Made by a program: the position numbers and the translations under genes
Notes under the pieces: model-generated
Told to the model about the DNA's origin: nothing
The model's input: only the letters and a program-made list of their open reading frames with translations
The model's database searches: none
Shown here: in pieces, positions 16,697-37,809 of the stretch
Position numbering within the stretch: position 1 is the first letter of the stretch
How the letters are laid out: every line of letters starts with the position of its first letter
IMG/VR virus record: IMGVR_UViG_2100351000_000014
Source of the DNA: a virus
Direction: 5' to 3' (one strand)
Length of the DNA stretch: 64,000 nt

Positions 16697-16903
16697 ATAA
16701 GCTCCCTATATCTACCCAATGCCGTATCAGTGCAAACTCCCAAAGCCTTTGCTACGTCATCATGTTTTCTTTTTGGCCAATACTCTAAAAGTATAGCATC
16801 CTCTTCTTTAGTCCACGTTCTTTTATTAGCGCTATGAGGCTCGGGCAAAATATCAAGTCTCTTCCGTATCTCGCTAATATCTAATCTCTATATGTTCTCT
16901 CAT
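16693..16903 (-). CDS. Myb/SANT-like HTH protein (missed by the ORF track; 1-nt insertion near 16884)
   Basis: frame reads ...KRTWTKEEDAILLEYWPKRKHDDVAKALGV...; ATGA overlaps with both neighbours once one base is removed. Confidence 0.6.
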
Positions 16904-17709
16904 TTTTCTACCTCATCGAAATCGACATGCTCATATCCCTCATCGTGATATAAGCTAACGTCCATTTTTATGGGAGTATAAACAGGCTCCCTGTCATCAT
17001 ACAAGTCAAGAATTGAAAGCCCGACAGTGTAATACCATGCTGTATACCTACGCCCATTTGCGGAAGCTATCGGCAAGCAAAGGCATGGGCAAGCCGCCGA
17101 TATTCTACCATCACGATTAACACTAAGGCTATAGTGGACATGGCCCCTCAATATAATATCAGGAGCATCCTTATCCTCAAGAAAAGCCTCATGTTCCATT
17201 CTTGCAAGCTCTTTAAGAATTGGAGTAGCTTGTCCATACGAAATATCAGAACGCCCAACAACGTGCCGAGTATGAATCTTCCATCCAAGTATGTCTAGTT
17301 TCTGAACATCTTTTATAGAACATCCAATCTCCTCAGCTACGGCGTCTTCATATTCACACACTCCATTTGAGTGGAACGGGGTACCGCGTACAAGAAAGAT
17401 AAGCGACGGGTCTACTCCAGTTCTCAAAAGCAAACTAGCCGCACATTTTGCTTGTTTCCTAACATCTGAAAATAAAGTATCAAGCGTCCCCTTTTTCCCT
17501 TCACCATCTGTAAAATCTCCGAGCCCTAAACAAAAATCAAACGGCCCATACTTATCAAGTGTTGTCTCATACCAGTTATAAAATATCTCTTGTGATTTCC
17601 TTATAAAACTATCTCCGAAATAATCAGGGCTAACCAATCCTCCGATATTACCGCAATGAGGGTCTGAAATTACTACCCCTCTTCGATGTTCTGACATGTT
17701 ATCCTCCAT
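16900..17709 (-). CDS. calcineurin-like metallophosphoesterase
   Basis: ISDPHCG, LGDFTDG, RGTPFH, ILRGHVH motifs. Confidence 0.8.
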   Translation of the reverse strand: MEDNMSEHRRGVVISDPHCGNIGGLVSPDYFGDSFIRKSQEIFYNWYETTLDKYGPFDFCLGLGDFTDGEGKKGTLDTLFSDVRKQAKCAASLLLRTGVDPSLIFLVRGTPFHSNGVCEYEDAVAEEIGCSIKDVQKLDILGWKIHTRHVVGRSDISYGQATPILKELARMEHEAFLEDKDAPDIILRGHVHYSLSVNRDGRISAACPCLCLPIASANGRRYTAWYYTVGLSILDLYDDREPVYTPIKMDVSLYHDEGYEHVDFDEVEK

Positions 17710-17778: not shown

Positions 17779-18237
17779 CTACCACAATCCGGCAATATGC
17801 CCACCGATATATCCACCCATTATAATCGATAGACCGCCTAGAATGTAATTCAATTTATGGGATGCTACGTATGAAGCATTTAACTTTTTCAAGTCCGTCG
17901 ATAACTGATTGAATGTCGTTTCCTGTTCCATCAAGTTCGCTCGCTGCTTCGTCAAGAGATCGTTTGATTCCGTCAATTGTTTCTTGAGAGCGTCTATTGC
18001 TATCTGCGAGTTGTTTTTCGAGTCCGTCAATTGTGCTTGAAGATTGTCTATTAAGGTCTGTGAGTCTGTTATTTTCTGCTTCGATTCTCTTATTTGTTTC
18101 TGCACCGATTGTAATTTTATTTGATAAGTCGTCAACGATTCTATCATGGTATCTTTTGCCGATTGCCCCGACAATAAGGCCACCGATAAGCAAACAAACA
18201 ATACTGACAATAAAATAGCTTTTGATTTTATCCACAT
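17779..18237 (-). CDS. spanin-like coiled-coil protein with N- and C-terminal hydrophobic segments
   Basis: signal-like N-terminus, Q/K/L heptads, C-terminal TM; last gene of the lysis cassette. Confidence 0.6.
   Translation of the reverse strand: MWIKSKAILLSVLFVCLSVALLSGQSAKDTMIESLTTYQIKLQSVQKQIRESKQKITDSQTLIDNLQAQLTDSKNNSQIAIDALKKQLTESNDLLTKQRANLMEQETTFNQLSTDLKKLNASYVASHKLNYILGGLSIIMGGYIGGHIAGLW
17855..18235 (-). CDS. i-spanin-like coiled-coil protein nested out-of-frame in 17779-18237
   Basis: GTG start 2 nt after the host ATG, N-terminal TM, heptad repeats. Confidence 0.55.
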   Translation of the reverse strand: MDKIKSYFIVSIVCLLIGGLIVGAIGKRYHDRIVDDLSNKITIGAETNKRIEAENNRLTDLNRQSSSTIDGLEKQLADSNRRSQETIDGIKRSLDEAASELDGTGNDIQSVIDGLEKVKCFIRSIP

Positions 18238-18246
18238 TGCTACTCC

Positions 18247-18489
18247 CTACGGCTTGGGTATTTTATCGGTGAATGCCGCAACGCCTAAAAGCACACCGCC
18301 GAAAATAAGATAGGCCCACAAAACTTGCGGATTAGAATTAGCTTGAAATCCGTATACCATGCCTAGTATAACCGATGCAATCCCGAGGACTCGCTTCTCA
18401 TCACCATCATTGTTCTTATCGGTCACAAAGTCCCAAGCGAGCTTCCCAGCTTTATCAAACAATTCTTTGATCTTCATTAAAAACTTCAT
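18247..18489 (-). CDS. holin-like two-TM protein
   Basis: basic N-terminus, two TM helices, position in the lysis cassette. Confidence 0.55.
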   Translation of the reverse strand: MKFLMKIKELFDKAGKLAWDFVTDKNNDGDEKRVLGIASVILGMVYGFQANSNPQVLWAYLIFGGVLLGVAAFTDKIPKP

Positions 18490-18498
18490 GTTGTCTCC

Positions 18499-18966
18499 TT
18501 ACGCTAAAATCTGGAAAATCCGAAGTCCATCACTTTTAGGTGCTCCTTCTCGTACAGTTCTAGAGCCCCCCGCGATAGGGTCGAATATCACCGGCCTTTT
18601 AGTACCAACTACAAAATGGGTAAACTTTGTATTAGGATTGTACCACGCGCAAATAGTATAGCATCCAATAGCTTGGGGGGAGTCGATAGGGTAGTGTCCG
18701 GGAATATATCTAAGTTTGCATCCGAGTAAATTAGCTAGACGTTGCCAATCTTGAACCTCAAGTTGCCCCGCATCATCGGTATCACCATCTTTATTCAGGT
18801 CGCCAGAGATTATACCTTGTTTCTTTGCCTCATCCCATATCTGGTTCAACGCGGAAGCTGTCCACGGTTCACCTTGAAAATGTTCACGGAAGAAAGCCAA
18901 AGAAATGTAGGCGCAGCCCACATGGTTTATCTCTTTATTCAATCTAGGGTCATTCTGAAATAACAT
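18499..18966 (-). CDS. DUF261 / C39-like papain-fold peptidase, candidate endolysin
   Basis: QNDPRL....VGC....THFVVG...IFDP (Q-C-H-D arrangement). Confidence 0.6.
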   Translation of the reverse strand: MLFQNDPRLNKEINHVGCAYISLAFFREHFQGEPWTASALNQIWDEAKKQGIISGDLNKDGDTDDAGQLEVQDWQRLANLLGCKLRYIPGHYPIDSPQAIGCYTICAWYNPNTKFTHFVVGTKRPVIFDPIAGGSRTVREGAPKSDGLRIFQILA

Positions 18967-18981: not shown

Positions 18982-19281
18982 CTATTTAATTATGCTAATA
19001 ACTATCACGCCGATTCCAGTGAGTGCATTGATAGCAACAAACAACAATTCAGCGTTGCTTATTTTCTTCTTGCTAGATTCTTCGTGCATTTGAATATGCA
19101 AATCCATTTTCGTATTAAGCTCTTTTATAGCTCCCATGAGATCGCGCTCACGCAATGCGGCTTCTTGTGCCTCTTGCCGTACTGATTTTTGTTCTAGTTT
19201 TATATCTTCAATGTCTTTTTCAAGACTACTCATTCTTGCTTTCAAATCAGCAATTGCGGCCTTATCTTCATCGCTGCCCAT
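18982..19281 (-). CDS. coiled-coil protein with C-terminal TM (XhlA/holin-accessory-like)
   Basis: heptad region followed by one TM. Confidence 0.5.
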   Translation of the reverse strand: MGSDEDKAAIADLKARMSSLEKDIEDIKLEQKSVRQEAQEAALRERDLMGAIKELNTKMDLHIQMHEESSKKKISNAELLFVAINALTGIGVIVISIIK

Positions 19282-19283
19282 TT

Positions 19284-19901
19284 TTAGATTCCTTTCTTTT
19301 CTTCTTCTAACTTTATCTTATCAAGGGCCTTGATAGCATCGCGGGCCACGCTTGTCGCTTCATCGATAATGCGCATATATTTTTCGCGTTCAACACTTTC
19401 TTTCTGTCTAAGTTTTTCTATTGAGTCCCGGGAGATAGACCAGAGCATAAAAAGGAATATGTCTATAAATGCAAGCCATTCGAGCGCGTGAACATATTTG
19501 TTTTCTGTATTCATAAGTGGAATGAAAATAAAAATAATGTATAGCAATACGTCAACTGAAATGCACTTAATTAAATAATGCTTTTCTACAAAACCGTATG
19601 CGAATAAAAGGACTATCGAAATTGAAATTATTGCAAGACCGAAAAAGTCAGAACGCGGAGAATAGCAAAGAGACCATACACCTAAAGAAAAAACTATTAT
19701 ACATTGAAATACTTTTATAAATCGTTTATCAATTGTAGATGAAAAAAAGAATAGTATCGCGATAAACGGATAACATATTTTAGGATACTGTACTAATACC
19801 ATTGCCGGACTATGCGTAAATAAACAGGTGCATATTTTTGATATGTACAATACAAGCGCAAATAGCGCAATAATTCTACCTACTCGCACTTGTGTTTTCA
19901 T
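19284..19901 (-). CDS. polytopic membrane protein with C-terminal coiled coil
   Basis: 5-6 hydrophobic segments. Confidence 0.6.
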   Translation of the reverse strand: MKTQVRVGRIIALFALVLYISKICTCLFTHSPAMVLVQYPKICYPFIAILFFFSSTIDKRFIKVFQCIIVFSLGVWSLCYSPRSDFFGLAIISISIVLLFAYGFVEKHYLIKCISVDVLLYIIFIFIPLMNTENKYVHALEWLAFIDIFLFMLWSISRDSIEKLRQKESVEREKYMRIIDEATSVARDAIKALDKIKLEEEKKGI

Positions 19902-20294
19902 TTAATCATCCCATACAGATTCAACTGCTTCGCTAGCGCTCATTACACTAGCAATTTCAGGATAACTAACTTCTGCTGCGGTCGCTTCCTTTACAAGGCT
20001 ATCCGACGTAGCTTTAAGATCGGTATTCCCATGCTCTTTGATTTTGTGGTTAAGATAGATTATCTTAGCGAGTCGTTTGCATTGCTCTTTTGCCCCATCG
20101 TCATTGGCATTAAAAGCGAATGAAACTTCCATGCGGTTAACAAAATCTTTCTTATCCTCATCGTTCTCGTCGAACGGAGTGCCACCCGCAAGTTCAGCAA
20201 GGTACATATTCTCAATTACCCATGCCCACCTATCAGCGTTTTTAGCTCCGCAAAGTTTTGGCATTGACTTGAAGAAATCTAGCGTAGTTCCCAT
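19902..20294 (-). CDS. hypothetical protein
   Basis: GGAG RBS; between tail and lysis genes. Confidence 0.55.
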   Translation of the reverse strand: MGTTLDFFKSMPKLCGAKNADRWAWVIENMYLAELAGGTPFDENDEDKKDFVNRMEVSFAFNANDDGAKEQCKRLAKIIYLNHKIKEHGNTDLKATSDSLVKEATAAEVSYPEIASVMSASEAVESVWDD

Positions 20295-22727: not shown

Positions 22728-23018
22728 GTGAGTATGAAAAGATTTTTTTTATTGATTGCGATTTTTCTCCTGTTTTTTTCGTGTTCGCCCATAGCTAAGC
22801 AGGATTATCCTATTAATGTATATCTAGTTTATCATTCAGAACCTTCTTTATATGGTGACAAAAATCTTCTTAATTCAATTTATAAACAGGATATAGCATA
22901 TGATTATAATGAATTAAATAATATATTGATTGAATATAATAAAATAAAAACTATAAACCCATATCTTGTATTGATTATTGGATTATATGCACAACCTAAA
23001 ATGCCTAGTACTCAATAA
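22728..23018 (+). CDS. AT-rich lipoprotein moron, antisense within the tail operon
   Basis: MKRFFLLIAIFLLFFSC lipobox, own promoter and RBS. Confidence 0.7.
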   Translation: MSMKRFFLLIAIFLLFFSCSPIAKQDYPINVYLVYHSEPSLYGDKNLLNSIYKQDIAYDYNELNNILIEYNKIKTINPYLVLIIGLYAQPKMPSTQ

Positions 23019-35469: not shown

Positions 35470-37809
35470 TTAATCTTCGGCCATATCATCCGTCAACCAC
35501 AGGCAAGTACACCTACAGTTCACACAATTCCCAGCGTCACCGGCGGGGTCTAATGGGTATTGCATGGGCTGTCCCGTCATAACGAACGGCTCATCAATTT
35601 CTACCGTCTCGCCATCGCAATTTATATGATCGAACTCGTCATCTGGGTCACTACCACGTGTACGTTCGTCGATCTGGGATAGCCACTGCTTGTGCGTCAT
35701 CCCGTCCGCTCTCGCTCCCATTAGGCCTCCTGCATTCATGGCGCCGGCGCTTTCTGTTCGAGCGATCATTTTTGCTCTGACCGCATCCATTTCGTCGTAA
35801 ACATTCTCGCAAATATCAAGTATGCTATTCTTAATTGTGTTTAGATTATCGCCATTGCTTATTCCTTCACTGATAGCATCTTGTAGTTTCTTGCGTAGCT
35901 TATCATTGGTCGTGTCGTTAATTCCTTCGGCCTTCAACAACCCGACAGACTCAATATATTCATTGACAAGTTTATTTTTAACCGAAAAAGAAGGGTCTAC
36001 TCTAGGGGCCTTTATTGCCTTACTTTTATTAGCTCCTATCATTTCGTGCGCATGATCTATTCCAGCTTCAAGAGTATCAGTCCATGCCGGTGCCAATGCC
36101 GATTTCAAAGCCTTATTCGCACTATCATTAAACACTGATTTCAGGGCCGATTCTATTTCAGTAACATAGGCCCCACCGCTTGAGATTGCAGTATCTAGCT
36201 TCTTAGAGTCCAGAGCGTCTATTACCCTTTTCTTTTGGCTTGCCGAATATCGCTTGACCGCTTGGATAAACTCGGCCTCTTTTGAAGTGGCCTTAGAATC
36301 AAAGGCTTTCCATATTGCAATACGGCGAGAATCGTCTTTCTTTCCCGCCTTATCTGATACTATCTTAATTGTAGTTTGATTATCACAATTGATAGAGTCA
36401 ACGACAGACTTTGACACTATGCGAATAATGGCCTTAGCGGTATCATCTTTAGGGGCTTCCATATTCGGGTCTTCAGTTGGCTTGTCTTCAGTTTCTCCCG
36501 TAGGGTTGCCCTCGGGAGTAGTTGGGTTGCTAGGTGGCATCTCTTCCGGCTCGCTTCTACCATCGGCTGGTACTTCGTACTGTGCGAACGTGCGAAGAAA
36601 TACCTTGCCTTTATTATTCGGAAGCTCGGGAAGATCGAACGCCTTGCGCCACTCGTCAATCTGTACAACTCCACCGGCTAGACCGGCATTCATAGTGCTA
36701 AGTTTTCTGTCTTCGTCCTCGGGAATATCGGGGTCAAACTTAAAGACCAATCCCTTATCGTATTCAGTTGCAACTAATTGCCTTGTAATCGCGCGCTCAA
36801 TGAATCCATACTCGTAACAAAGGACGTTTCGATTATAAAGATAAAAGGCGCTATCTATCGTGGCCCTATTGCTATTCTCTATTCTCCCTAAAATTTCCGG
36901 GGGAATCTGATAGTGTTCACTGGACATATCGCGGATAAACTTTCGTGACTCTATCATGTCCAATTCGACCGGGGACATTGCCAACGTTTGTATTTTAGCA
37001 TCAAAGCCAAGGATTCCGGGCTCGCGTCTGTGCCCCATCCCGCCTAGTTTTTGAAGCCACGACTGCTTAAAAGCATCCGCCGCATCCTTGGGCATACCTG
37101 GAGCAGTTATAATATAAGGAGGAGTTGCATCATTGTATGCAAAATTACTTTGCATATTGGCCATGTTTTCATCGGCGATAAACTCTTGCTCTAGAGGCTC
37201 GCTGTCTCCGCGCCCGCGCCCGTATGGGTCTGAAAGGTTGGGACGGCGAAAAACTATCATGTCATCGGGTGATACAGTTAAAGCTCTCGCGGAAGTCGAA
37301 CCATATGGATATACCAAATAATAAGGGTTTCCCATGGTCGGGGTCATCTGCACCCATGCCGGGGGAATAATGTCTAGCTCAATTACTTTGTTTGTATGTT
37401 CGTCGCGAACCTTTAGAAGGAAACATTCGCCGACTAGTTTAGTAAGGGCTTCGACGGTGTAGAAAAGGAAATAGCTATCCATTTCAGGGTAGCGCGTAAT
37501 TGGATTTTCAAGAAGGTCGAGAACATCATGATCGTATATGGGCTTTGCGGCGTCCCCATTTTGTCGATAGTCAATTTTATTAAAGACCTGATACGGCGTA
37601 GAAGCAACCGCTCTCGCTATAGCGGCGACTCCTGATAATCGAGGGTTTTTATGAAATAGCTCGGGGAGGTCGGAAGTATCTCGGCGGGGAGGCTTGCTCC
37701 AAACACGTTGAATGGCCTGATTAACAGTATCCCATCCCCCGCCTAGCTGATTTCTGCTTTTAATTATATTACTAAATAGTCCCATTGCAATCTCGTCTTT
37801 CTGTCTCAC
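35470..37809 (-). CDS. HK97-family portal protein fused to a MuF (gpF) head morphogenesis domain
   Basis: portal motifs (DPYGRGRG, ELDMIESRK, YQIPPEILG..E.SNRA); C-terminal RAKMIARTES...KQWLS..D.RTR...H...CVNCRC. Confidence 0.9.
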   Translation of the reverse strand: MRQKDEIAMGLFSNIIKSRNQLGGGWDTVNQAIQRVWSKPPRRDTSDLPELFHKNPRLSGVAAIARAVASTPYQVFNKIDYRQNGDAAKPIYDHDVLDLLENPITRYPEMDSYFLFYTVEALTKLVGECFLLKVRDEHTNKVIELDIIPPAWVQMTPTMGNPYYLVYPYGSTSARALTVSPDDMIVFRRPNLSDPYGRGRGDSEPLEQEFIADENMANMQSNFAYNDATPPYIITAPGMPKDAADAFKQSWLQKLGGMGHRREPGILGFDAKIQTLAMSPVELDMIESRKFIRDMSSEHYQIPPEILGRIENSNRATIDSAFYLYNRNVLCYEYGFIERAITRQLVATEYDKGLVFKFDPDIPEDEDRKLSTMNAGLAGGVVQIDEWRKAFDLPELPNNKGKVFLRTFAQYEVPADGRSEPEEMPPSNPTTPEGNPTGETEDKPTEDPNMEAPKDDTAKAIIRIVSKSVVDSINCDNQTTIKIVSDKAGKKDDSRRIAIWKAFDSKATSKEAEFIQAVKRYSASQKKRVIDALDSKKLDTAISSGGAYVTEIESALKSVFNDSANKALKSALAPAWTDTLEAGIDHAHEMIGANKSKAIKAPRVDPSFSVKNKLVNEYIESVGLLKAEGINDTTNDKLRKKLQDAISEGISNGDNLNTIKNSILDICENVYDEMDAVRAKMIARTESAGAMNAGGLMGARADGMTHKQWLSQIDERTRGSDPDDEFDHINCDGETVEIDEPFVMTGQPMQYPLDPAGDAGNCVNCRCTCLWLTDDMAED

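Follow-up and report, generated by a model that had tools for sequence, protein, structure and literature searches.

Nested, co-initiated genes that close a phage lysis-type cassette are a candidate lipoprotein-free spanin equivalent

An open question in phage lysis is how phages that encode no recognisable spanins get past the outer membrane. Approximately 13% of surveyed phages belong to this group in a survey that did not search for other topologies; its authors anticipate such topologies, none of those listed being like the one described here (Kongari et al. 2018, PMC6139136). The Leptospira phages LE3 and LE4 are likewise described without any identified lysis genes (PMC6078989). The locus studied here raises this question for an uncultured siphophage known from 64,000 nucleotides of DNA (hereafter the window), in which the minus strand carries nearly all genes. 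The initial annotation of this DNA proposed that two coiled-coil membrane proteins are read from different frames of the same DNA, beginning at one ribosome-binding site at the end of the lysis cassette, and that they form an unusual spanin. We asked whether both frames are genes and whether their products could do the work of a spanin.

The first open reading frame, ORF A (17779-18237, minus strand), begins with ATG and is predicted to encode a protein 152 aa long. ORF B (17855-18235, minus strand) begins with GTG, is predicted to encode 126 aa and lies in the -1 (+2) frame relative to A. It starts 2 nt after A and is nested wholly within it. These coordinates and the 381-nt overlap confirm that two long ORFs in different frames start 2 nt apart; the third frame of the overlap contains 18 stops. 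The initial annotation had named no strand. A shared Shine-Dalgarno-like element, AGGGAG (18243-18248, minus strand), is located 5' of both starts and overlaps the stop codon of a holin-like gene, with a duplex energy of -8.4 kcal/mol and spacings of about 4 and 6 nt to the two starts. The ribosome-binding site and start motif given in the initial annotation are correct on the minus strand at 18246-18230. Across all 64 kb, a scan for co-initiated overlapping ORFs whose N-termini are both hydrophobic returned no pair other than A and B.

To compare this arrangement among relatives we read the DNA of 11 distinct loci, giving 12 with the window. Narrow scans of IMG/VR returned no locus and broader ones returned two. 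The first homologue searches yielded four A and five B proteins, and a search with a B profile gave 75 matches, about 70 of which are plausible homologues; there was no tblastn match to B among 50,697 phage records. The GC content of the loci ranges from 31 to 48%, and identity from 31 to 75% for A (a family of 15 sequences) and from 26 to 74% for B. In the database records of these relatives, gene callers annotated A alone or B alone at each locus. Both frames are open in all 12 loci, in the same relative frame each time and with starts within 7 nt of each other. The start of B is offset from that of A by +2 nt in 10 loci and by -4 and -7 nt in the two others, and a look-alike pair in the cultured phage TJE1, described below, has an offset of +5 nt. 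Clustered initiation of A and B is conserved across loci and the exact motif is not. Because the offset varies and the ATG of A overlaps the holin stop codon in four loci, translational coupling may count as much as a single ribosome-binding site.

Given protein A and the codon usage of the phage, the probability that the B frame stays open is 1.6e-7, and the probability that the A frame stays open given B is 3e-6. Across the loci, the probability of an open B frame given A is between 1e-6 and 2e-8; two values of zero, at L011 and L015, arise artefactually from the offset between starts. Among 24 other genes used as background, the longest stop-free run in the +2 frame was 66 codons, and one run in the +1 frame reached 126 codons. 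Since such a run exists elsewhere in the window, conservation is stronger proof than open-frame length. Substitutions in three independent locus pairs (25, 53 and 48 differences at positions 1, 2 and 3 of A codons, each of 378) showed that position 2, the wobble position of B, varies more than position 1 of A, which coincides with the second position of B codons (p = 6e-4). Within the overlap, the third position of A is less variable than it is in the tail that belongs to A only (p = 2e-4), and less variable than third positions of the endolysin-like gene (15/126 versus 56/141 differences, p = 1.5e-7). In the A-only tail, pN is lower than pS, indicating purifying selection. These substitution patterns are a signature of selection acting on both frames. 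The view that one frame codes and the other is a by-product could draw on the 126-codon run and on the linkage of conserved residues of the two frames through shared bases, but it would have to accommodate open frames in 12 of 12 loci down to 26-31% identity, their low probabilities per locus, the codon-position tests and the constraint on the A-only tail. It is refuted by these comparative data and we give it next to no credence. The initial annotation had named stops in close relatives as one finding that would overturn it, and none of the 12 loci has such an interruption. Thus, as judged from comparative sequence, A and B are two real genes, and their double coding is kept in distant relatives.

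The pair lies directly downstream of an 80-aa two-TM holin-like gene (18247-18489, minus strand; weak PHROG holin match, E 0.02). This is preceded by a gene for a 155-aa DUF261-like protein (18499-18966, minus strand), a putative endolysin, whose match to Pfam DUF261 (E 3e-5) is under the curated cut-off. The protein contains a Q-C-H-D pattern that is C39/papain-like by eye and aligned to Borrelia DUF261 by hhalign at 84% over 53 columns; it had no sequence match in the PDB. Further upstream are three late genes (18982-20294, minus strand) predicted to encode a 99-aa coiled coil with a C-terminal TM, a 205-aa multi-TM protein and a 130-aa soluble protein, which form a conserved block in the same order in relative loci L001 and L003. 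A 269-aa metallophosphoesterase-like gene (16900-17709, minus strand) is located 3' of the pair. Wherever DNA 5' of the pair was available, a small TM gene of the holin-like type, a weak label, precedes it; the neighbouring enzyme gene alternates between DUF261/C39-like, YkuD-like and M23 types (weak calls as well). Lysis cassettes show mosaicism of this kind, in which unrelated candidate wall enzymes replace one another while the small membrane gene next to them stays in place. The pair therefore closes a lysis-type cassette as had been proposed, with the holin-like and endolysin-like genes before it resting on weak calls, and it is quite probable that A and B have a lysis role of some kind.

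We also considered a role outside lysis, in which the pair would be a membrane component of the virion, its assembly or entry, or a superinfection-exclusion module that ends the late operon. The presence of other unexplained membrane genes in this operon (the 205-aa multi-TM and 99-aa genes) would suit such a role, as would the lack of a significant family or structure match for the pair, but the pair is found with siphovirus and myovirus-type tail genes alike and directly after the holin-like gene in all loci with upstream DNA, and the signal peptide of A suits envelope export more than a capsid part. We judge a non-lysis role improbable.

Several features of the neighbourhood are recorded here in their own right. 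The 205-aa multi-TM and 130-aa genes (19284-20294) belong to no known family and are conserved 5' of the lysis block. Metallophosphoesterase genes of differing subtypes repeatedly adjoin this block (window 16900-17709; L010:841-1701; L011:6844-7806). YkuD (L,D-transpeptidase)-like proteins occupy the endolysin slot at L012:5155-5631, L015:3150-3641, L016:1047-1649 and L010:298-837, as does orf48 of TJE1, and two of the YkuD-like proteins in this slot belong to the unnamed phrog_26752. Two loci unrelated to each other (L012:5859-5999, L014:59-196) have a conserved basic ORF of 45 aa beside the holin-like gene.

By hydropathy and structural models, the anatomy of both proteins is as first described, with a signal, heptads and a C-terminal TM in A and an N-terminal TM and heptads in B. 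Residues 8-26 of B (18158-18214, minus strand) are predicted to form a TM anchor, with a mean hydropathy of 2.3-3.2 in all loci. In the model, a helix from residue 2 to 102 is followed by a hinge (103-107) and a second helix (108-124). Heptad repeats are marked by Asn at N48/55/62 and Leu at L51/58. The most conserved segment, residues 108-124 (17864-17914, minus strand; I112, G114, K119), corresponds to the short amphipathic helix after the hinge. The commonest match of the B family is the Rz-like spanin phrog_739 (13/51 members at E<=1e-3). These Rz-like matches are weak, the best having E 1e-5, and because A itself scores 15.9 bits on the B profile, coiled-coil composition alone can yield Rz-like scores of this size. 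Structure and fold searches with B gave no significant match and were not informative, an outcome to be expected of a long helix; nor did family searches return a significant match for the pair. Rz has two coiled coils joined by a linker (PMC5295617). We take B as the Rz-like subunit since its best family matches are Rz-like spanin PHROGs and its helix-hinge-helix model resembles Rz. With a predicted type II topology, a single N-terminal TM and a helical periplasmic domain, B looks like an inner-membrane spanin (i-spanin) in these models.

Residues 1-24 of A (18166-18237, minus strand) form a putative signal peptide with a conserved S/G-Q-S junction, in which Q25 is present in 14 of 15 sequences and S26 is invariant. 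From hydropathy and this motif we infer that signal peptidase I cleaves A after residue 24. Glutamine after a signal peptide is a Bacteroidetes trait, the Q-rule (PMC5837995), and the residue in A is partly fixed by the B frame; we rejected it as a spirochaete marker. Cys16 of A is not conserved and three loci have no Cys in A at all, from which it follows that A is not a lipoprotein. After the signal comes a heptad helix of about 100 residues; in both A and B the hydrophobic periodicity is 3.5 residues, and both are modelled as long helices. The C-terminal segment of A (residues 130-152; 17782-17850, minus strand) is Gly-rich and hydrophobic, starts just 3' of the stop codon of B and so belongs to the A-only tail. 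Its best 19-residue mean hydropathy, 1.1-2.4, is moderate. A of the window ends in Trp, as its relatives often do.

Comparison with known spanins showed both likeness and difference. As in lambda Rz/Rz1 and T7 18.5/18.7 (PMC6139136, PMC5295617), both genes lie on one strand, are read in different frames and close a lysis cassette. As in embedded spanins, one product (here B) is an N-anchored coiled coil in which a hinge leads to a conserved helix at the C-terminus, and the second gene is overlooked by gene callers. Unlike in those systems, the i-spanin-like gene is the nested one, and its partner A is longer, has no lipobox and consists of a coiled coil of about 100 residues with a C-terminal hydrophobic tail. 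The starts of A and B are a few nt apart, whereas an embedded o-spanin begins 0.4-0.5 of the way along the i-spanin. The two heptad helices here are co-encoded in register, in contrast to the staggered sensitive and silent domains of lambda. Two-component spanins have periplasmic Cys for intermolecular disulfides and none is conserved in A or B (2/69 B homologues have a Cys within the last 60 residues). The distinction from Rz/Rz1 drawn in the initial annotation therefore stands, with reversed nesting, a near-common start and no lipobox. Its proposal of an unusual spanin architecture is borne out for the two long coiled coils, the double coding and the cassette position, but A, having no conserved Cys, falls outside the o-spanin definition. 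Overall, the pair departs from two-component spanins in lacking a lipobox o-spanin, a downstream o-spanin start (the offsets here being -7 to +2 nt) and the periplasmic Cys. Between 16 and 21 kb, no frame contains a lipobox ORF, so no canonical o- or u-spanin is encoded there. A lipoprotein-like gene at 22728-23018 (plus strand) was rejected as an o-spanin, being on the opposite strand and 4.5 kb away; it is a small gene that lies between tail genes.

In the u-spanin T1 gp11, as in A, an export signal at the N-terminus is combined with a TM-like segment at the C-terminus, which in A corresponds to residues ~130-152 and is predicted with moderate hydropathy. It differs in that A has no lipoprotein signal or lipoylated Cys, is all-helical and is accompanied by an obligatory partner gene. 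A u-spanin-like product could also be formed from the two frames by a frameshift that joins the N-terminal anchor of B to the C-terminal anchor of A, the two starts being secondary. The frames would permit such a doubly anchored fusion, but we rejected it as highly improbable: no slippery heptamer is conserved in the 12 loci, and both N-termini (the signal of A and the TM of B) and the C-terminal helix of B are conserved, all of them needless for a fusion. Thus, the pair lies outside both the two-component spanin and the u-spanin definitions and plausibly works like them. Our searches of the openly accessible literature turned up no account of nested, co-initiated genes of this lipoprotein-free kind.

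We found a similar arrangement in the cultured Tetrasphaera phage TJE1 (NC_019930.1) via its YkuD-like neighbour protein. An annotation gap after the YkuD-like orf48 contains three unannotated ORFs (36859-37586, equivalent to locus L018:7486-8213). The first is a holin-like ORF (36859-37086) similar to the holin-like genes of the uncultured group. Directly after it are an A-like ORF of 167 aa with a signal and a Gly-rich C-terminal TM (37083-37586) and a B-like ORF of 136 aa with an N-terminal TM and a helix (37088-37498), in the same frame relation as A and B and with starts 5 nt apart. The gene 5' of this pair has weak similarity to the holin-like gene of the window (E 4e-4), the 205-aa gene of the window is similar to TJE1 orf46 (E 3e-5), and several further genes are common to both. 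TJE1 orf45 resembles the 130-aa gene of the window by size and place. Similarity of the pairs themselves is marginal (8.2 and 4.2 bits, exceeding 500/500 and 499/500 shuffles) and is not significant by hhalign. In a genome this rich in GC (57.7%), the open-frame null is also weak (P 0.01-0.05). At the level of sequence, the TJE1 pair is a match of design and position, homology not being proven.

On balance we favour the reading that A and B form a putative lipoprotein-free, co-initiated equivalent of a two-component spanin. Co-expressed late, they would jointly perform the final disruption of the outer envelope. B would be a type II inner-membrane protein with its N-terminus inside, followed by a periplasmic coiled coil, hinge and tip helix, as in Rz. 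A would be exported by Sec, cleaved after residue 24 and held in the outer or inner membrane by its Gly-rich hydrophobic C-terminal tail in place of a lipid. The helices of about 100 residues, each about 15 nm long, would pair as a coiled coil. After the holin and endolysin had removed the wall, the complex would rearrange and merge or tear both membranes, and the clustered starts would supply both subunits at the same time and in a set ratio. A bolder form of this reading is that the pair represents a third spanin class, a lipid-free two-subunit coiled-coil fusion device read twice from the same DNA, whose secreted rod would extend to the outer membrane via a C-terminal helix. We advance this as a tentative possibility, with the balance tipping slightly against it. 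A protein with a cleaved signal and a C-terminal TM is by default an inner-membrane protein, which makes an outer-membrane anchor for A only a candidate.

That default topology places both A and B in the inner membrane and suits a different explanation, in which the two are lysis helpers in the cytoplasmic membrane (B anchored at its N-terminus, A at its C-terminus) that need no outer membrane and act on wall or membrane or regulate the holin or endolysin. A helper of broadly this sort, acting on the envelope without being a spanin, is LysZ of corynephage CL31. The conserved position in the lysis cassette is compatible with such helpers, and so is the recorded host of TJE1, Nostocoides/Tetrasphaera jenkinsii, an actinomycete (Actinomycetota) without an outer membrane; provided that it is assigned correctly, this monoderm host is the chief evidence against a role at the outer membrane. 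Yet this assignment is doubtful. The GC content of such actinobacteria is about 70% compared with 57.7% in TJE1, for the genes tested TJE1 shares genes with the uncultured group and not with actinophages, and orf27 had no relative among 50,697 phage records. The Rz-like architecture and matches of B also speak against helpers of this sort. We consider this explanation unlikely, though it carries more weight than the other alternatives above. If the third spanin class proved true, the TJE1 lineage would infect a two-membrane host, and disruption of the outer membrane in a large group of 'spanin-less' phages would be explained.

A lipoprotein-free spanin equivalent of this design is a concrete and widespread candidate with another anchor chemistry, missed because gene callers take one frame. 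The overlapping coding is unusually complete: the same bases carry, in register, two heptad helices and two distinct membrane signals at the N-termini, all kept down to ~26-31% identity. The look-alike pair in TJE1 offers a direct experimental handle in a cultured phage.

Pattern scans of GTDB genomes gave no relative, and hence no prophage that would point to the host of this phage. The DUF261 link to Borrelia, together with Atlas neighbours that are mostly Spirochaetota (few members have taxa), hints that a Spirochaetota host is plausible. The Leptospira phages LE1 and LE4 resemble the window in that their putative lysis blocks end in a gene for an N-anchored membrane protein and then one for an exported protein whose C-terminal TM is rich in Gly. 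They differ in having separated genes, a lipobox-like Cys in the second product and shorter products; the likeness is one of design only, with no homology shown. The genes concerned, at L020:32600-33246 in LE4 and L022:4939-5663 in LE1, are unannotated spanin candidates at the end of late blocks. In LE4, the endolysin slot (L020:31634-32302) is occupied by a Q-C-H-D protein that is papain/C39-like by eye, has no Pfam match and has no similarity to the DUF261-like protein of the window. The presence of DUF261-like proteins in the endolysin slot (window 18499-18966; L017:3989-4405) suggests that the DUF261 proteins of Borrelia plasmids and prophages are candidate wall peptidases.
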